Assembly: GCA_027459745.1 (NCBI GenBank)
Contig: DAIDHL010000004.1
Location: 15,240 to 79,239, forward strand
Length of the DNA stretch: 64,000 nucleotides
Direction of reading: 5' to 3'
DNA from: Candidatus Levyibacteriota bacterium
GTDB taxonomy: Bacteria; Patescibacteriota; Microgenomatia; Levybacterales; UBA12049
The stretch's first letter is position 1; the number at the start of each line of letters is the position of its first letter. Shown in pieces: positions 52,458 to 60,965 of this stretch. Under the pieces are notes generated by a model. The model worked only from the letters and a program-made list of their open reading frames with translations, searched no databases and was not told where the DNA came from. The position numbers and the translations under genes were made by a program.

Positions 52458-53303
52458 TTAATTATCAAGGTAGAAGATATAGACGTATCCGAAAGTTGTT
52501 ATAGAATAACCTGCTCCCATAGTACCCCCGAATGTGGGAGTTCCTTCTTTCTTAATTAAAATACCTAAATTTGCTAATTCAGCTAATGGCCCTATAAGCT
52601 CTTTTTCTTTTAAATGCTCCTGATAAGATATATTGTGCCATAACTCCTTTTCAGGCTTATTTGTATATCCGTATTTCTTTTTTAGAATCAAACTATTTAC
52701 ATTATAATTTTGATAAATGTATTTACTTATGTAGTCTGAGATTATAACTCTGTTTCTAGTGATATCTTCGAGTCTTTTTCCTTCTATTCCAGTTCTATCA
52801 GTGTACTGTAATAATTCTTTTTGTATATCCTCCTCAACTTTTCCCAATAGTTCATTTTTTATAAAGGTTAATATATTGAGCCCTGCAAAAGAAATTTGAT
52901 TTGTAGTCCAAATCAGCTTTTCAACTTCAAACTTTTCAATCTCTTCTTTATTTTTATCGGTTAAGTTTAAAAGTATTTTCTGATAGGCTCGTCTTTTTTC
53001 ATTAGCTCTTTCTTTAATATATGCTTCCAATAAAAGAACAAAGCAGTCTTGAAACTCCTCATGCTCAAATAGCTTTTGGCTAAATTTCCCTAAATTATCT
53101 CTAACAAACTCTACCCATTCTAAAACACGCTGCTGCCGTAATTTCATCCCTCTTCCGAAGTATGCTTTAGATAGTTTATAAGCAATATTTATACCCGGAA
53201 TCGAAGTAGCAATAGCATCTACAACCTCATCTGCTGTAATAGAGCCTACCTCTTCAAGCAGTAGCTCATCACTCTTTGTTATTTTTGCAATTTTACGTTT
53301 CAT
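52458..53303 (-). CDS. hypothetical protein (281 aa), second gene of a coupled pair
   Basis: Long ORF with no recognisable motif. It starts 1 nt after the stop of the upstream ORF. Confidence 0.5.
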   Translation of the reverse strand: MKRKIAKITKSDELLLEEVGSITADEVVDAIATSIPGINIAYKLSKAYFGRGMKLRQQRVLEWVEFVRDNLGKFSQKLFEHEEFQDCFVLLLEAYIKERANEKRRAYQKILLNLTDKNKEEIEKFEVEKLIWTTNQISFAGLNILTFIKNELLGKVEEDIQKELLQYTDRTGIEGKRLEDITRNRVIISDYISKYIYQNYNVNSLILKKKYGYTNKPEKELWHNISYQEHLKEKELIGPLAELANLGILIKKEGTPTFGGTMGAGYSITTFGYVYIFYLDN

Positions 53304-53304
53304 G

Positions 53305-54168
53305 TTATTTTACATATGCATCCTCGGCAATAGTAACACCAATTTTTTTAATTCTAGGACCTTTTTCTTCAATTACTACGGGTACAATTCCCTTATAAAA
53401 TCTGGCAGCAAAAGAGAAAATCATTAAATCTCTAACAAATACAAAAATGTTGTGATATACAATTTCAGAAAATTCTTTTGCTGATTGTTGTTTAGATGTC
53501 TTGGGAACCGAAATTGAGAGTTTACCATTTTTATCATATTCACAAACTAGTGGTGTCATTCGGATATTTTTATAATGTTGAGTAGTAGTCCTTAGCCTAA
53601 TAATAGATTCTGAGCAAGGTTTAAAAAGCTCAACTATTTGAATGATATTTGCTATTTTTTCATTATCTTCACTTGGAGTATTATTCTTAATCGCTTTAAT
53701 TAATTTTTCGCCATTTTCGCCGTATGTATGCAATTTAATACCAAGTAAAGGCTCAAACATTTTCATCAATATGTCCAAGGTAGATTTAGCCTGACTCAAT
53801 ACTTCTTCAATAGTTCCTTCTAAAATATCAGAATGTTGGGCTATACGTTTACCATCTTTTTTTATTTTTTCTTTAAATTCTTCTACTAAATCTGTCTCTT
53901 CCTCTGCATATCTATCTACAGCATTTGCTAATTTACTAAGCTTTTTAAATATCTCGATTGATGTAAGAAATAGATATTCTTTCTGCTTCGCTGGAATATC
54001 TATGGCTTGTTGAGGTATTCCTAACAAATTCATTATAAATTGTTCTCCAATTTCTTGACCTTTTTTAGACGTAAGAAGAATTAAATTTGTTGAGTTAGGA
54101 GTTAAATTAAATCTCTTCTCTTTTGCTTCAGTCTTTTTGTTATCATCCATAATATTATCACACCTCAA
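53305..54168 (-). CDS. hypothetical protein (287 aa), first gene of a coupled pair
   Basis: Long ORF with no recognisable motif. It is preceded by a 344-nt non-coding region. Confidence 0.5.
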   Translation of the reverse strand: MRCDNIMDDNKKTEAKEKRFNLTPNSTNLILLTSKKGQEIGEQFIMNLLGIPQQAIDIPAKQKEYLFLTSIEIFKKLSKLANAVDRYAEEETDLVEEFKEKIKKDGKRIAQHSDILEGTIEEVLSQAKSTLDILMKMFEPLLGIKLHTYGENGEKLIKAIKNNTPSEDNEKIANIIQIVELFKPCSESIIRLRTTTQHYKNIRMTPLVCEYDKNGKLSISVPKTSKQQSAKEFSEIVYHNIFVFVRDLMIFSFAARFYKGIVPVVIEEKGPRIKKIGVTIAEDAYVK

Positions 54169-54512: not shown

Positions 54513-56252
54513 TTAGATCTCAATCACTATCGGCATGATGAGGGGGCGGCGGCGGAGTTGTTTAAATACCAACTTACCCGTAATATCAGATATAAGCTTG
54601 CGCATATGCACCCAATTATTTACCCTGCTCTTCTTTGCACTCAAATTATTGCGAATCTCCCTCTCCAAAGAACCTTTGATATCCTGCACATCAGTCTGCA
54701 ATAAACCTCTCGTCACCACTTCTGGTGGACTAACTAATTGTCCATCCTCAGCTGACACTTCCACCATCACAATCATAATACCCTCTTTGGCCAATTGCTC
54801 CCGATCACGCAGAATAAAATTTTCTACCTCTTCACCCGAATACTGATCCACATACACATGCTCAATCTGAATTCTCTTGCCCAGACGCATACTCTCCTGA
54901 TTCAATAACACTTCCTGACCATCCTCTATCAACAACACATTCTTGCGTTGATAACCAAACTTCTCAGCTAGACGTCTATAAGCCACCATTTGCTTATAAT
55001 TACCACTAATCGGAATCAAAAACTTCGGTCTGGTCAAAGACATCAGCAGCATACTATCGTCAGACGATCCATGACCGGATACGTGAAATTTGTCAGACAC
55101 TTGGGTATATAACACTCTAGCTCCACTCTTAGACAGCGTATCCACCAATTGATCCACCAACACTTCATTGCCCGGAATAGGATCAGAAGAAAAAATTATT
55201 ACATCATCAGGAGATAATTTGACGTCTTTGTGCTCGCCATTGGCAATTCTACTCATACCGGAATTTTCCTGACCCTGCGCACCAGCCACTAATAACAACA
55301 ATTGCTTGTCACTATAATTTTTCAGTTCATCCATCTCGATGATGGTATTCTGTCGCACCTGCAAATAACCAATCTGTCGTCCTATATCTGAGTTCTTAAT
55401 CAAAGAACGACCAATAAAACAAACTTTACGATTGTATTTTTCCGCTGCTTTAATCGCTTGATTCAAACGAGAAATATTCGAGGAATAAGTCGTAATAATA
55501 CATTTACCCTTACAATTCTCCACTTCCCGTTCAAAACTTTCAGCAATTGAGTCTTCCGAAGGAGTAAAGCCTTTACGTTCTGCACCCAAACAGTCAGCCA
55601 ACAAACACATAATTCCCTGATTGGCAGCATTCACAATACCGGCAAAATCAGTTTTCTTGCCATCAGCTGGCGTCAAATCAAATTTGTAATCAGCCGCATG
55701 ATAAAAATTGCCGACGGGAGTCTTGACAAAAATATGTGAACTATCAGGAATAGAATGAGTCACACGGATGAAGGAAACGGTAAAAGGACCCAAATTTATT
55801 TCCCGATTATCAAAAGGCACGGTTTCGACTTTACCAGGTAGTTCAAACTCTTTTAATTTGGCATTGGCAAAAGCAGCGGTTAAGGGAGAAGCATACATGG
55901 GGAAATTATAACCAGCTGATTGCAACTGAGGTAGAACAAATGGCAATGCCCCGATATGATCCTCATGACCATGTGAGAATACCATCCCTACGATCTTTTT
56001 ATTCTTATTATTCTTCAACAAATAACGTACATCTGGCAACAATAGATCCACACCCAACATCGTCTCGTCTGCAAAGCCCATACCGCAATCTACAATCAGA
56101 ATCTGATCCTTATATTCATAGAGATACATATTGCGCGTGACATCACCCGGCCCACCTAAGGGTAGCAGGGAAAGTATATCGTTATTTTTTTTGAAAAACT
56201 TCTTTTGTCCTTCTGGAGCAAATTGAGGTTGCTTCGTTAAATTTTCATCCAT
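54513..56252 (-). CDS. rnj: ribonuclease J (metallo-beta-lactamase/beta-CASP)
   Basis: HxHxDH motif (FSHGHEDHIGALPFV), then beta-CASP and a C-terminal domain. 579 aa. Confidence 0.92.
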   Translation of the reverse strand: MDENLTKQPQFAPEGQKKFFKKNNDILSLLPLGGPGDVTRNMYLYEYKDQILIVDCGMGFADETMLGVDLLLPDVRYLLKNNKNKKIVGMVFSHGHEDHIGALPFVLPQLQSAGYNFPMYASPLTAAFANAKLKEFELPGKVETVPFDNREINLGPFTVSFIRVTHSIPDSSHIFVKTPVGNFYHAADYKFDLTPADGKKTDFAGIVNAANQGIMCLLADCLGAERKGFTPSEDSIAESFEREVENCKGKCIITTYSSNISRLNQAIKAAEKYNRKVCFIGRSLIKNSDIGRQIGYLQVRQNTIIEMDELKNYSDKQLLLLVAGAQGQENSGMSRIANGEHKDVKLSPDDVIIFSSDPIPGNEVLVDQLVDTLSKSGARVLYTQVSDKFHVSGHGSSDDSMLLMSLTRPKFLIPISGNYKQMVAYRRLAEKFGYQRKNVLLIEDGQEVLLNQESMRLGKRIQIEHVYVDQYSGEEVENFILRDREQLAKEGIMIVMVEVSAEDGQLVSPPEVVTRGLLQTDVQDIKGSLEREIRNNLSAKKSRVNNWVHMRKLISDITGKLVFKQLRRRPLIMPIVIEI

Positions 56253-56395: not shown

Positions 56396-57661
56396 CTACC
56401 AGCTTGGTAGGAATTCTTTGATATTTGTATCATTTACTAACACTGTTTGTGCTTTGCCTTCCACAATTAACCTCGCAGATTTACGGCACATATTATCGAT
56501 AGTTCTTTCCAAAGTACGAATACCCGAATCAAATCCCAAGGGTCTGATAACCCCCGCCCACGAATTTTCATCTATAGTCATTTGCTGCGGTAATAATCCT
56601 GCCTGTTGTCTTATCTTGGGAAAAAGATAAGTTTTGGCAATTACTATTTTTTCCTCATCAGAATAAGAGGGCATTTGGATAATTTCCAGACGATCCATCA
56701 CGGCCGTTGAAATAGCCGTCGTATTATTAGCCGTGGCTACAAACAATACATTCGAGAGATCAAAAGGATAATCAATATAATGATCTATAAAAGCTGCATT
56801 TTGTTCTGGGTCCAAAAGCTCAACCAACACGCCCATAATGTCGGCACGTGAGGCTTCAGTTACACGATCCAATTCATCAAGTAAAATAACCGGATTCTTT
56901 GTTTTAGCATGCACTAACTTCTTAATGACCGACCCCGGCTCTGCATCAGGAAAAGCTCTTGACTGGCCTCTTAAAGCCAATGAATCAGCCATGCCCCCAA
57001 ACGGTATGCGCTCAAATTGTTTACCTAGCGCTTCAGAAATGGACTTTGCAAGGGTGGTTTTCCCTGTCCCCGCCAAGCCAACTAAACACAAAATGGGTGC
57101 ATGTTGAATATTATTCACCCCACCATTCTTTAGATTTAGAATAATTGTAGCCAGATAATCCAAAATTCTACTTTTAATAGGCTCTAGTCCGTAATGATTT
57201 TTATCCAAGATTTCTTTGGCTTTGACCAAATTCAATGAATCTTCACTCAACGTAGTCCATGGAAGACCAATGACCCAATTAATATAGTTGGAAGTACTTT
57301 CATATTCCAAAATATAATTAGAGCTCATAAATCCTGAGCTGGCTCTAATCAGAGCCAAACGGGCTATGCGCTCAACCAATGATTGATGCAGATCCATTGG
57401 CAGCTTCACGGAGTCAATTTTCTCGCCTAATTTTCTTATTTGATCATTCGAGTTCATTTTTGCTTTGTCCTCTTCCTTCTCTTTAGTTGCGGTTTGGCGA
57501 TTATCTGCCGAAATTATCTCCGGTCCCTGTGCAGGAGTGGGAACATTTTGTGGTGTTGACACACTTTGATTAACTGGTTGAGTCTGAGCTGGTGGAGCAT
57601 TTATTCCAGTGGCTGGGACACTAGAAGAAACCAAATTATCCGGTTGGGCAGTGGGATTCAT
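56396..57661 (-). CDS. Lon-like AAA+ ATPase lacking both the N-terminal LAN domain and the S16 protease domain
   Basis: Block-by-block similarity to the Lon ATPase module (LDKNHYGLEPIKSRILDYLA.., PILCLVGLAGTGKTTLAKSISEALG, PVILLDELDRV, LDPEQNAAFIDHYIDYPFDLSNVLFVATAN, ...RTLERTIDNMCRK). The protein ends right after the AAA+ alpha subdomain. The N-terminus has about 70 low-complexity residues. Confidence 0.8.
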   Translation of the reverse strand: MNPTAQPDNLVSSSVPATGINAPPAQTQPVNQSVSTPQNVPTPAQGPEIISADNRQTATKEKEEDKAKMNSNDQIRKLGEKIDSVKLPMDLHQSLVERIARLALIRASSGFMSSNYILEYESTSNYINWVIGLPWTTLSEDSLNLVKAKEILDKNHYGLEPIKSRILDYLATIILNLKNGGVNNIQHAPILCLVGLAGTGKTTLAKSISEALGKQFERIPFGGMADSLALRGQSRAFPDAEPGSVIKKLVHAKTKNPVILLDELDRVTEASRADIMGVLVELLDPEQNAAFIDHYIDYPFDLSNVLFVATANNTTAISTAVMDRLEIIQMPSYSDEEKIVIAKTYLFPKIRQQAGLLPQQMTIDENSWAGVIRPLGFDSGIRTLERTIDNMCRKSARLIVEGKAQTVLVNDTNIKEFLPSW

Positions 57662-57743
57662 GATGCTTATATCATACGCAAAATATATTTATTTGGCAAA
57701 CATTTTGCTTGTTTCTTATCATTAACCAAACTACAATTAAAAC

Positions 57744-58529
57744 ATGGTTGCATTAGAAAAACATAGTCATGTACCAAAATGGAGATCAGCTCTTTTTACA
57801 ATGGCTAACCGTCATCTTACACGCCCCCTAGCTGAGCGCTCATTTAATCCCAAGGTTGCAGAACGAGCACTTGCTTCGGCAGAGCGAATTCCTCAAGAAC
57901 AAGTCGCGCAAATCGCACAAAGGATAGGTTTATTCTATGAGATAGATTCAGAACAAATCGCACAAGCTGCACAAACTCCTGCCTATATTTATAACCGAGA
58001 ACAAAAAATGCAAGAAGAATTATTGTATCTCTATCAAAATCTTAGACAAGAACGCGTAGCAGACAGAAATAAATCATTAAAGAATCGTCGAGTCATGAAA
58101 TCAGGCACCAAACGCTTTTGGCAAGCAGTAAAAGATTATACAAAAGAATATAGGACTTTTCCTGAATTTGAACGAGATCTAGCAAATATCTTCTCCCATA
58201 AACGTCAAGACATTGAAGAAGAAGGAGGCAGTTTTGAAGCCACACCTAAACCTAAAATCATTATCTTAAATGAAGAAATTGATAAATTTCAAAACATTCT
58301 CGACCATGAAGTTTATCATGCCTTGACATATTTTCCACCTACTTCACCTCAGACTTATGACGCTACTATTGGTTTCTCTCATAAAGGATCAAGTAAATTC
58401 TCGAATATGCTCACTGAAGCTTGCACCGAGGTACTTCGTATTGCCGAAGCACATCCAGATCTTTCTACACTGGATCTTTATACGCTTATATCTGATGATT
58501 ATGCATTCTTCACGCACTGCAAAAACTGA
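57744..58529 (+). CDS. hypothetical protein with an HExxH motif (HEVYH). It may be frameshifted at the 3' end.
   Basis: 261 aa. An out-of-frame ORF (58357-58677) continues about 50 codons beyond the stop, which may mean the true protein is longer. Confidence 0.45.
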   Translation: MVALEKHSHVPKWRSALFTMANRHLTRPLAERSFNPKVAERALASAERIPQEQVAQIAQRIGLFYEIDSEQIAQAAQTPAYIYNREQKMQEELLYLYQNLRQERVADRNKSLKNRRVMKSGTKRFWQAVKDYTKEYRTFPEFERDLANIFSHKRQDIEEEGGSFEATPKPKIIILNEEIDKFQNILDHEVYHALTYFPPTSPQTYDATIGFSHKGSSKFSNMLTEACTEVLRIAEAHPDLSTLDLYTLISDDYAFFTHCKN

Positions 58530-58673: not shown

Positions 58674-60965
58674 TTAGAAGTGTTTTTTGCGGCGCATACC
58701 TTTGCCAAATCTATCGTTACGATTAAAATTGTCTCCTCTTTCACGTCTGAATTGCTGTGACAATGGATGATCTGTACCATGTCTAGCCTCATCTCGATCA
58801 GGCCTTTCACCTCTCTCATTATTTCTCTTTTGTTCCTGTTCTTTAGCTTCTTCGACTGATAGCATTGATAAATTAATTCTTCCCTGATCATCAACCTGAA
58901 TTACTCTGACTTTCACAACTTGACCAACTTGCACAACATCTTCAGGAGATTTTACAAAGTCCTTGGACATTTGTGAAACATGTACCATACCTTCTTTGCC
59001 TGGCAAGAATTCTACAAAAGCTCCAAAAGACAAGATTCTTTTGACCGGACCTTCAAATTCTTCACCTATTTGTACTTCACGTACAATTCCTTTGACCCAA
59101 TCATAAGCCTTTTGAACTGACTCATCGCTGGTACCAGAAACAGTAACAGTTCCATCATCTTCCACATCTACTGTGGCTCCAGTTTGAGCAATGATATGTT
59201 TGATAGTCTTTCCACCAGGTCCGATAATTTCTCCTATGCGGTCAACCGGAATTTGCAAAACTTCGATCTTGGGTGCATAAGCAGACAATTCTGAGCGAGA
59301 AGAAGGCATAACACTCTGCATAACTTCTAAAATTTGCATTCTGGCTTTTTTAGCACGTTCAAATATCTCAGCAATTTGTTCGACTGTCAAACCCAGAACT
59401 TTAACATCCAGCTGAATAGCCGTGACACCAGTATCAGTTCCTGCAACTTTAAAGTCCATATCGCCAGAGAAATCTTCCAGTCCAATAATGTCAGTTAACA
59501 ACACATACTTGTCTTCATCTGACATCATACCGACAGAAATTCCAGCCACTGGTTTGATGATTGGTACACCTGCATCCATTAAAGCCAAAGTAGAGCCACA
59601 AGTAGAAGCCATAGAAGTAGAGCCATTGGAGGACATAATTTCTGACACTACACGAATAGTGTATGGGAAAACATCTCTGCTTGGAATAACTGCTTCCAAA
59701 GCTCTTTCTGCCAATGCACCATGTCCAATTTCACGACGAGATGGTGTACCCATTCTGCCAGCTTCACCTACAGAATATGGTGGCATGGAATAATGATGAA
59801 TATATCGCTTACTTTCTTCACCTTCTGCTGATTCAATTAATTGTTCCATGCGTGGAGAACCTAAAGTAACAACCGTCAAAGCCTGTGTCATACCGCGCTG
59901 GAAAATAGCTGATCCATGAGTTCTAGGCAAAAGACCAACTTCAACATGCAAAGGACGAATCTCATCCATCTTACGGCCATCGGCTCTCTTTCCATTTTTC
60001 AGAACATCAGAGCGAATTTGTTTGAACATGACATATTCCATCGCCTTGGCGATAGTTTTTTTGTCGACTTCACTACCTCCGTCGCGCATCTTTTCTGTAT
60101 CGTAAATCTTATTCAACAAAATATCTGTTTCATCGCCGCTGCCTTCCTTGCTGACACGAGATACAACTAAGTCCTTAATATCTGTTAAATATTCTTTCTC
60201 AATTAAGGCGGCTACTTCATGTAATTTGGTATTTGGTACCACTACTTTCTTCTCTTGACCAACTTTAGCTCTAAATTCTTCAATATATTTGATGATTTCT
60301 CCGGTTGCATTGTGGGCCTCTTTGGCGGCTTCAACCAATACATTTTCTGGTACTTGTTTTGCTCCAGCTTCGATCATGTGAGTTTTTTCTTTGGTTTGAC
60401 TGAAGACGATGTCTAATTCTGAATGCAATGTCTCAGAAGTAGTTGGGTTGACGATTAATTCACTGCCATCATCTGGACTTTGCACATATCCAACACGCAC
60501 TGCACCAATTGGTCCTTTCCAAGGAATACGTGAGATATGCAAAGCAGCCGAAACTGCGATAAGCGATAAGATATCCGGTTCGTGTTCGCCATCAACTGAC
60601 AAGACAGTAACAACTACCTGAACTTCATTTTTGTATTCTTTTGAAAATAAAGGACGAATAGAGCGGTCAATCAAACGGCCGATCAAAATTGATTCATCAG
60701 TTGGACGACCTTCACGTTTTACCCAACGAGAACCTTTGATTCTTCCACCAGCATATAATCTTTCGACATATTCAACTGACAGTGGGAAATAATCAATATC
60801 TTCACGGAGTTTGCCTTCTACGACTGTAGCGTGCACCATAGTATCACCCATGCGGGCTAACACAGCGGCTGTAGCTTGTTCAGCCAAACGACCTGTTTCT
60901 AAGGTTACCTTTTCTCCTGCTAATTCAAATTCTAAGGAGACAATTTTATTTGCTTTTTTTGCCAT
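58674..60965 (-). CDS. pnp: polynucleotide phosphorylase with a basic RGG-like C-terminal tail
   Basis: Two RNase PH domains, KH and S1 (...FGAFVEFLPGKEGMVHVSQMS...). 763 aa. Confidence 0.95.
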   Translation of the reverse strand: MAKKANKIVSLEFELAGEKVTLETGRLAEQATAAVLARMGDTMVHATVVEGKLREDIDYFPLSVEYVERLYAGGRIKGSRWVKREGRPTDESILIGRLIDRSIRPLFSKEYKNEVQVVVTVLSVDGEHEPDILSLIAVSAALHISRIPWKGPIGAVRVGYVQSPDDGSELIVNPTTSETLHSELDIVFSQTKEKTHMIEAGAKQVPENVLVEAAKEAHNATGEIIKYIEEFRAKVGQEKKVVVPNTKLHEVAALIEKEYLTDIKDLVVSRVSKEGSGDETDILLNKIYDTEKMRDGGSEVDKKTIAKAMEYVMFKQIRSDVLKNGKRADGRKMDEIRPLHVEVGLLPRTHGSAIFQRGMTQALTVVTLGSPRMEQLIESAEGEESKRYIHHYSMPPYSVGEAGRMGTPSRREIGHGALAERALEAVIPSRDVFPYTIRVVSEIMSSNGSTSMASTCGSTLALMDAGVPIIKPVAGISVGMMSDEDKYVLLTDIIGLEDFSGDMDFKVAGTDTGVTAIQLDVKVLGLTVEQIAEIFERAKKARMQILEVMQSVMPSSRSELSAYAPKIEVLQIPVDRIGEIIGPGGKTIKHIIAQTGATVDVEDDGTVTVSGTSDESVQKAYDWVKGIVREVQIGEEFEGPVKRILSFGAFVEFLPGKEGMVHVSQMSKDFVKSPEDVVQVGQVVKVRVIQVDDQGRINLSMLSVEEAKEQEQKRNNERGERPDRDEARHGTDHPLSQQFRRERGDNFNRNDRFGKGMRRKKHF

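Follow-up and report, generated by a model that had tools for sequence, protein, structure and literature searches.

The gene under study lies on the reverse strand of a stretch of 64,000 nucleotides (hereafter the window) from contig DAIDHL010000004.1 of a Candidatus Levyibacteriota bacterium, with the gene for PNPase (pnp) upstream and that for RNase J (rnj) downstream. It encodes a protein of 421 residues that possesses the ATPase module of the protease Lon but neither the N-terminal LAN domain nor the C-terminal S16 protease domain. An earlier interpretation, made from the nucleotide sequence and a list of its open reading frames (ORFs) and referred to here as the sequence-only reading, had described it as a protease-less Lon paralogue that could act as an unfoldase or chaperone, or as a DNA-binding module. 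The analysis reported here demonstrated that the gene is real, under selection and Lon-derived, and that it represents a new offshoot of Lon without proteolytic function rather than an artefact of assembly. The NCBI gene call P0285 (421 residues, P0001 cluster), which is located on the same contig as P0284, an exact copy of a neighboring ORF, is going by its equal length probably the record's own call of this ATPase.

Domain architecture and missing domains of the ATPase

Pfam analysis of the protein identified an AAA domain (PF00004) at residues 191-329 (E 8e-18) and a Lon_lid domain (PF22667) at residues 353-405 (E 1.3e-9), and no Lon_C or LAN domain. The TIGR00763 'lon' profile was matched only by its positions 248-571 of 795, and the score of 330.5 bits stayed below the cutoff of 608.05, as did that for NF008053 (258.7 bits, cutoff 891). 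In the PDB, the closest relatives were the AAA+ modules of bacterial Lon (B. subtilis, Y. pestis, E. coli) and of the human mitochondrial enzyme, with an E value of 5e-74 at best over query residues 72-418, and the top Foldseek matches of the structural model were Lon proteins throughout. The proposed derivation from Lon was thus borne out by profile, PDB and Foldseek matches, and membership in a different AAA+ clade, which was also looked for, was not found. Residues 70-418 aligned with residues 246-579 of E. coli Lon at 37% identity. In this segment-wise alignment with the Lon ATPase module, all motifs quoted earlier were located at the expected places, i.e., LDKNHYGLEPIKSRILDYL at residues 152-170, GLAGTGKTT (Walker A) at 195-203, LLDELDRV (Walker B) at 260-267 and RTLERTIDNMCRK at 382-394. 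Both the Lon-specific lid and the preceding three-helix bundle are present, as indicated by Pfam, by the E. coli Lon alignment from residue 246 onwards and by Foldseek. The C-terminus (...NIKEFLPSW) is located at the AAA+/protease boundary, three residues past the position aligned to residue 579 of E. coli Lon, and the S16 domain would begin at about residue 585; the protein therefore does terminate where the protease should start.

A monomer model produced by AlphaFold 2 (AF2) from 44 family sequences was folded from residue 71 to 420, with the helices of the bundle at residues 74-84, 89-109 and 114-132. The model matched the structure 6n2i, an engineered AAA+ fragment of E. coli Lon, with a target-normalized TM-score of 0.87 over 346 columns. 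LonB, LonC and LonBA all keep the S16 domain, LonB with a membrane insertion in the AAA+ module and LonC with degenerate Walker motifs. The ATPase belongs to none of these groups, as it has no S16 domain, its Walker motifs are intact and the AF2 model contains no inserted helical hairpin.

The segment ahead of the folded core is of low complexity and predicted to be disordered, in agreement with the Pro/Gln/Thr-rich stretch of some 70 residues noted earlier; P, A, T and Q are abundant in its first 69 residues. Across the family, a median of only about 10 residues precedes the conserved core. The nearest orthologue, which shares 89% identity, is encoded on contig DAIDHK010000001.1 of another Ca. 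Levyibacteriota genome (locus L009), and comparison of the two tails yielded 25 identical, 14 synonymous and 29 non-synonymous codons. The tail is therefore fast-evolving, while its reading frame and composition are kept. As the internal Met69 is Ala in this orthologue, the upstream ATG is favored as the start codon.

The absence of the protease and LAN domains was further determined on the nucleotide level. A tblastn search with the N and P domains of E. coli Lon gave no match in the 64-kb window. In addition, 65 LAN and 100 diverse Lon_C domains were used to construct hidden Markov models (HMMs), with which the window and 87 loci, together 1.55 Mb, were searched in all six frames. The Lon_C model had no match in the window or the loci except for the two Lon_C genes of L089, a locus from Dependentiae that served as positive control, and the LAN model had no match in the window or the 87 loci, a set that held no positive control for LAN. 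Also within 10 kb of the ATPase gene in 80 related loci (see below), no S16 or LAN domain was found. Downstream of the stop codon, only a spacer of 143 nt separates the ATPase gene from rnj on the coding strand, so that a frameshifted remnant of the protease downstream is impossible; together with the negative tblastn and HMM searches, this ruled out a frameshifted or nearby S16 domain. Hence the earlier statements that both domains are missing and that no protease domain is encoded nearby hold for the window and for the related loci. Pfam scans of 30 of the larger ORFs of the window revealed no peptidase partner but ordinary housekeeping and transport genes, including those for RNA polymerase beta and beta', AlaRS, LepA, FtsK, endonuclease III, pyrimidine synthesis, a P-type ATPase and an Nramp transporter.

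Conservation of the family, its catalytic residues and its pore loop

In a database of 5.8 billion proteins, the query gave more than 7,600 matches, the best 120 of which were inspected. They were 347-457 residues long, contained AAA and Lon_lid only and, if named at all, were named after Patescibacteria or Levybacteria. The homologues are listed as 'AAA family ATPase' at NCBI and as 'ATP-dependent Lon protease' at JGI, and neither Pfam nor NCBIfam holds a family specific to the protease-less ATPase. A scan of the GTDB species-representative genomes identified 80 loci with the family gene, which belong to Levy-, Gottesman-, Woese-, Roizman-, Chisholm-, Davies-, Dojka- and Woykebacteria and to a few metagenome-assembled genomes labeled Saccharibacteria; many of the 80 loci bear evidently wrong 'Gammaproteobacteria' labels. 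In all 78 complete family ORFs, the stop codon is positioned 0-8 residues past the position aligned to W421, with a typical length of 340-380 residues. The comparison with relatives, which had been proposed as a check, thus revealed a conserved, Microgenomates-wide family and not the curiosity of a single genome. Within the folded core, 172 synonymous and 15 non-synonymous codon differences were counted against L009, indicating strong purifying selection. Neighbor-joining separated the family from 69 canonical LonA AAA+ modules with a bootstrap support of 100/100, and HMMER scores were above 300 bits inside the family versus about 250 bits for canonical Lon. We conclude that the family is restricted to Microgenomates-type Patescibacteria and descends from LonA by loss of both the LAN and the S16 domain. 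Many members keep a hydrophobic/aromatic C-terminal tail (...FLPxW/Y/F), and many others end in ...KEFL or ...GEYLxx. A further divergent protease-less Lon-type ATPase is P0160 from Ca. Dojkabacteria (MBN1617942.1, 548 residues), which carries a C-terminal extension of about 200 residues without Pfam match and a pore loop that differs again (LRGTTSTDANGFPG), hinting at further diversification of the clade.

The residues required for ATP turnover are fully conserved. Walker A K201, Walker B D262 and E263, sensor-1 N312, the trans arginine finger R324 and sensor-2 R382 are invariant in the 77 aligned members, and by this alignment all residues for ATP binding, hydrolysis and inter-subunit coupling are intact. 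As the catalytic residues and the arginine finger are invariant in 77/77 members, the protein can be expected to form an ATP-hydrolyzing oligomeric ring. In Y. pestis Lon, Y294 and W297 of the three-helix bundle pack against Y456 of the pre-sensor-1 hairpin, a tie in which E458 also takes part (PMC7239648). Y126, W129, Y295 and D297 of the ATPase align with Lon Y294, W297, Y456 and E458 and are invariant in the alignment (A1) on which this correspondence is based; the exchange of E458 for D297 is conservative and keeps the position acidic. Also the segment aligned to the pre-sensor-1 hairpin of Lon (DHYIDYP) is conserved in the family.

In contrast to these residues, pore loop 1 deviates from that of Lon. 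The canonical LonA loop reads H-R-R-T-Y-[VI]-G-A-[ML]-P-G, with the Tyr in 69/69 modules. In the structure of Y. pestis Lon, Y398 and I399 hold the chain under translocation like a pincer, with R395 and R396 bracing the loop (PMC7239648). The family loop instead follows the pattern Q-S-[RK]-x-x-P-[DE]-A-E-P-G. Among 78 members, position 237, which aligns to Y398, is occupied by F (22), H (16), Y (11), R (7), T (5), S (5) and others, and position 238, aligned to I399, is P in 54. Position 239 is D or E in 77 of the 78, and position 241 is E in every one. Accordingly, the aromatic-hydrophobic pair of E. coli and Y. pestis Lon is not conserved in the family, R395 is also replaced, and the window protein has F237-P238 in place of Y398-I399. 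This pattern identifies the loop as rebuilt and not decaying, and as apparently selected for something other than an aromatic paddle. It further suggests that an aromatic residue at position 237 is dispensable across the family, although F237 of the window protein is in itself a conservative exchange. The net charge has shifted as well: the median net charge of the lid is +1 in the family versus +4 in canonical Lon, and that of the AAA+ large subdomain is -4 versus -1.

Genomic context and transcription signals

The positions of the ATPase gene, its subdomains and the surrounding features are compiled in Table 1.

Table 1. Features at and around the ATPase locus, in window coordinates
Feature	Position	Strand	Basis or remark
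Lon-type AAA+ ATPase gene without protease and LAN domains	56396..57661	(-)	ATG start, 421 aa + stop; ORF list, Pfam, TIGR00763, PDB matches
Disordered N-terminal tail, residues 1-70, lineage-specific	57452..57661	(-)	AF2, predicted local distance difference test (pLDDT) <50
Helical bundle equivalent to LonA NTD-3H (atop the AAA+ ring), residues 71-140	57242..57451	(-)	Aligned to E. coli Lon 246-306
AAA+ large (alpha/beta) subdomain, residues 141-330	56672..57241	(-)	Pfam PF00004 at 191-329
Walker A GLAGTGKTT, residues 195-203	57053..57079	(-)	Sequence; K201 in 77/77 members
Walker B LLDELDRV, residues 260-267	56861..56884	(-)	D262 and E263 in 77/77 members
Pore loop 1 RGQSRAFPDAEPG, residues 231-243	56933..56971	(-)	Family-defining rebuilt loop
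Lon lid (small AAA+ subdomain), residues 331-421 + stop, with sensor-2 R382	56396..56671	(-)	Pfam Lon_lid at 353-405
RNase J gene (rnj), directly downstream	54513..56252	(-)	Pfam RNase_J_b_CASP, RNase_J_C, Lactamase_B
PNPase gene (pnp), conserved upstream neighbor	58674..60965	(-)	Pfam RNase_PH x2, KH, S1
Basic C-terminal tail of PNPase	58674..58860	(-)	Last ~60 codons
Candidate sigma-70-like promoter TTGCCA-17-TATGAT	57671..57699	(-)	Ends 9 nt before the ATG; consensus match 10/12
Orphan ORF, 261 aa, divergent, between pnp and the ATPase gene	57744..58529	(+)	In the window only
Two adjoining ORFs, 281 and 287 aa, between rnj and ftsK	52458..54168	(-)	No Pfam, NCBIfam or PADLOC match
ORF of 808 aa	40706..43132	(+)	No Pfam or NCBIfam match
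GroES-GroEL pair	~23.3-25.2 kb		tblastn

The gene order in the relatives is ClpB/C-like ATPase, NusA, IF2, a gene of unknown function, S15, PNPase, Lon-type ATPase, RNase J and FtsK. In 44 of the 80 loci, the gene is flanked directly by pnp upstream and rnj downstream, all three on the same strand; in further loci, one of the two sides is conserved, and the order pnp-ATPase-rnj is kept down to about 48% protein identity. The genes are closely spaced, with median gaps of 127 nt between pnp and the ATPase gene and 70 nt between the ATPase gene and rnj, and several stop/start overlaps occur with rnj. A second context was found in 12 loci (Roizmanbacteria-like genomes, OLB23 and others), in which groES-groEL is oriented head-to-head with the ATPase gene. 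By this context the ATPase gene is placed among housekeeping genes of RNA turnover and protein folding, to which it may be functionally linked, and not among defense or mobile genes. Membership in a defense system was rejected, since PADLOC gave weak generic AAA matches only (best DolB, 2.7e-8 over the P-loop region) and the neighbors are housekeeping genes. An apparent PNPase-ATPase fusion of 1121 residues in L070, which would have counted as Rosetta-stone evidence, proved artefactual, as the two genes are separated by a masked stretch of N.

A -10-like hexamer is present 4-11 nt upstream of the ATPase start in 48% of the loci, compared to 14% of shuffled sequences and 11% and 4% at the starts of rnj and pnp, respectively. 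Together with the candidate promoter in the window, this suggests that the ATPase gene has a promoter of its own, is transcribed into a leaderless or near-leaderless mRNA and may be co-transcribed with rnj. A bicistronic ATPase-rnj transcript is suggested because rnj rarely has a -10-like element of its own and the ATPase gene often does. In the same position, 4-11 nt before the start of ftsK, such a hexamer was found in 56% of the loci. Shine-Dalgarno-like sequences are scarce (7-15%) upstream of the ATPase gene, ftsK, pnp and rnj in L009-L088, and the start regions suggest that leaderless translation is widespread in these genomes.

The divergent groES-groEL spacer of Roizmanbacteria-like genomes contains a conserved element of the form TTGTCAAG-N(10-12)-AGTCTGCTAA, which is located in the region about 40 nt upstream of the ATPase gene, a few bases before its ATG (L052, L056, L057, L061, L063, L066, L068, L069, L072, L074, L046). 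It looks like a conserved promoter or operator of a leaderless transcript and is not CIRCE; neither the region ahead of the ATPase gene nor the groES-proximal spacers contained a credible match to this heat-shock operator (at most 4 mismatches). Likewise, no structured RNA was identified in the flanking spacers, and in the whole 64-kb window no Rfam family, including tRNA, rRNA and riboswitch families, reached its gathering score.

PNPase of the Microgenomates loci (L009-L084) extends 30-110 residues beyond the S1 domain into an Arg/Gly-rich, basic C-terminal tail with a median length of 70 residues and a median net charge of +8. The tail contains a short motif, HPL[ST]xQF[RK]RER in Levybacteria-like genomes (HPLSQQFRRER in the window) and GPHFP[TA]SR[FL] in Woesebacteria-like genomes, which looks like a docking peptide inside a disordered tail.

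The 261-residue ORF between pnp and the ATPase gene contains the HExxH-like motif HEVYH, which may occur by chance, and was considered as a hidden protease. It has no match in Pfam, NCBIfam, PADLOC or PDB, only a single, identical copy was found among the 5.8 billion proteins, and none of the 80 related loci, L009 with its 89% identity among them, has a counterpart. As an orphan without family or structure match, it was ruled out as a conserved partner. The stretch of the two adjoining ORFs between rnj and ftsK has the lowest GC content of the window (0.31 versus about 0.38), and the rnj-ftsK gap of the relatives is much shorter; the pair may represent a recently acquired insert. The positional counterpart of the 808-residue ORF in L002 and L006, located beside a sortase gene, has a weak Baseplate_J match only.

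Possible roles of the family and its relation to known Lon-type systems

Going by the invariant arginine finger and the homology to Lon, the family would form hexameric, ATP-hydrolyzing Lon-like rings. Having lost the S16 domain, the ATPase alone is not able to degrade proteins, and the acidic loop QS[RK]xxP[DE]AEPG has taken the place of the loop by which Lon grips and pulls its substrates. Clients would be engaged via the acidic pore, plausibly at positively charged segments, and would not be threaded into a protease chamber. Given the loss of S16 and the replaced gripping loop, a role as non-proteolytic remodeler or chaperone is the most likely one, and we consider it fairly probable that the protein is a Lon-derived stand-alone ATP-hydrolyzing ring that engages its clients differently from Lon. 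The sequence-only reading is supported in part; its term paralogue would hold if the genome also encodes a canonical Lon. An unfoldase in the sense of Lon is doubtful, as the Tyr of all 69 canonical modules is not conserved in the family, which has gained an invariant Glu and a conserved Asp/Glu; a classical Lon-style threader it probably is not. The groESL context of the Roizmanbacteria-like sublineage is more in line with a general chaperone role than with one in RNA turnover.

Several observations weigh against the proposed remodeler role. About 40% of the members, including the window protein with F237, carry F or Y at the pore-loop position, and some threading ability may persist in these proteins. 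Both the oligomeric state and the ATPase activity are deduced from sequence. Conservation of gene order inside one bacterial class may reflect shared ancestry and not function, and the gene recurs in two settings, one of RNA decay and one of chaperonin genes, that hint at different functions. Finally, an S16 protease acting in trans may be encoded beyond the searched window and loci.

The gene neighborhood raises the possibility of a narrower role that is compatible with a remodeler, i.e., that the ATPase is an accessory of RNA decay and acts as ATP-dependent partner of RNase J and/or PNPase in a minimal degradosome, for example by stripping basic RNA-binding proteins off RNA or by remodeling the nucleases via their basic tails. 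The arrangement of pnp, ATPase gene and rnj on one strand in 44 of 80 species-level loci, with short gaps and some overlaps, is consistent with such a role, as are the bicistronic transcript suggested by the distribution of -10-like elements, the acidic pore loop and the Arg/Gly-rich PNPase tail with its conserved short motif. However, the linkage to pnp and rnj is absent in the Roizmanbacteria-like and several other members, which have groES-groEL as neighbor, no fusion protein exists, as the L070 case is due to a run of N, and the synteny may be merely inherited; we therefore regard this role as possible but rather unlikely. To our knowledge, no Lon-type AAA+ protein acts in RNA decay. In a more far-reaching and still less likely form, the ATPase would be an acidic-pore motor dedicated to pulling Arg/Lys-rich segments of RNA-associated proteins, such as the PNPase tail or ribosomal proteins, and would together with the co-expressed RNase J constitute the ATP-dependent part of an RNA degradosome specific to the candidate phyla radiation (CPR). 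If so, a protein-remodeling ATPase would be employed where other bacteria use a DEAD-box helicase, and it may also have replaced canonical Lon altogether in these reduced genomes.

The precise truncation at the domain boundary would also be expected of a split Lon, in which the ATPase ring docks onto an S16 ring or another peptidase encoded elsewhere, as ClpX does on ClpP, and proteolysis occurs in trans. The ...FLPxW/Y/F tail of many members could serve as docking peptide, and the S16 search covered the window and the loci around the gene. Nevertheless, no S16 domain occurs within 10 kb in the 80 loci or in the 64-kb window; genes for split enzymes usually adjoin those of their partners in at least some genomes. 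The Tyr/Ile pincer that would feed the substrate is not conserved, and many members end without the tail motif. Taken together, these points render a split Lon improbable. A role mainly as DNA- or RNA-binding ATPase, based on the reported DNA-binding capacity of the Lon AAA+/alpha domain, gains some support from the title given to 6n2i by its depositors ('DNA-binding ATP-dependent protease La') and from the RNA enzymes encoded next to the gene. The lid is less basic than that of canonical Lon, the large subdomain is more acidic and the pore loop has gained two acidic residues, so that this role is very unlikely and the DNA-binding module of the sequence-only reading is not supported. Nothing beyond the missing domains speaks for a canonical lon gene cut by a frameshift, an assembly break or pseudogenization; with the same stop point in 78 independent species-level genomes, strong purifying selection, invariant catalytic residues and no room for a protease remnant ahead of rnj, this explanation can be regarded as excluded.

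Compared to LonA proteins (MEROPS S16, TIGR00763; E. coli and Y. pestis Lon, human LONP1), the family shares the three-helix bundle, the AAA+ module and the Lon-specific lid and retains Walker A and B, sensor-1, the arginine finger, sensor-2 and the equivalents of the W297/Y294/Y456 triad. In contrast to LonA, it has neither the LAN/PUA-like N domain nor the S16 Ser-Lys protease domain, and the Tyr-Ile pincer and R395 of pore loop 1 are replaced by the acidic loop of a separate clade (100/100). The E. coli fragment 6n2i has the same domain span, but this and 3m6a, a B. subtilis Lon AAA+/protease construct, are laboratory truncations, whereas the family protein is a natural, conserved product with its own signature. 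As single-ring AAA+ ATPases that are related to proteases and encoded without a protease domain, ClpX and HslU resemble the family. Both have retained the aromatic pore loop, possess defined docking elements and are as a rule encoded beside their peptidase. In the family, the aromatic position is variable and the surroundings of the gene contain no peptidase gene. Among the pseudo-proteases, FtsHi still has its protease domain, in inactivated form, and LonC has retained the protease but lost the ATPase activity. The family has no protease domain left at all, and its ATPase residues appear intact. Common to all three, the family as well as plant FtsHi (PMC8197885) and LonC, is that a lineage of AAA+ proteases has given up one of its two activities and is still conserved.

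Tandem-AAA+ Lon-like proteases, such as P0121 from Candidatus Dependentiae (MFC1854773.1, three AAA + Lon_lid modules followed by Lon_C), also have no LAN domain, and their AAA+ modules score high against the window ATPase. They differ from the family in that they keep S16, belong to other phyla and have different pore loops. As parent or partner of the ATPase they were rejected, since the nameable ones belong to Candidatus Dependentiae and to a Brassica gene model and none to Microgenomates. Proteins of this kind, with two or three AAA + Lon_lid modules, one S16 domain and no LAN, are represented by L089, P0124, P0128 and about 25 others; in L089 (Ca. Dependentiae, JBHPCE010000027.1, 57..6355), a triple-AAA form of 1113 residues adjoins a single-AAA form of 924 residues. 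Some of the long tandem-AAA matches are fusions of eukaryotic gene models, e.g., in Brassica napus. We know of no description of multi-ring Lon proteins. A full-text literature search, the coverage of which left out many subscription papers, yielded nothing on Lon in Patescibacteria/CPR or on natural protease-less LonA.

ATPase and protease are usually regarded as inseparably fused in Lon. In the present case, a whole class of ultra-small, host-dependent bacteria has kept the motor alone over long evolution, which provides a natural experiment on the capabilities of a Lon ring without the protease. The signature QS[RK]xxP[DE]AEPG together with the stop at the lid separates the family from true Lon proteases, which is useful in view of the name that its members bear at JGI. 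The conserved arrangement of pnp, ATPase gene and rnj offers a testable lead into how RNA and protein turnover are organized in Patescibacteria.

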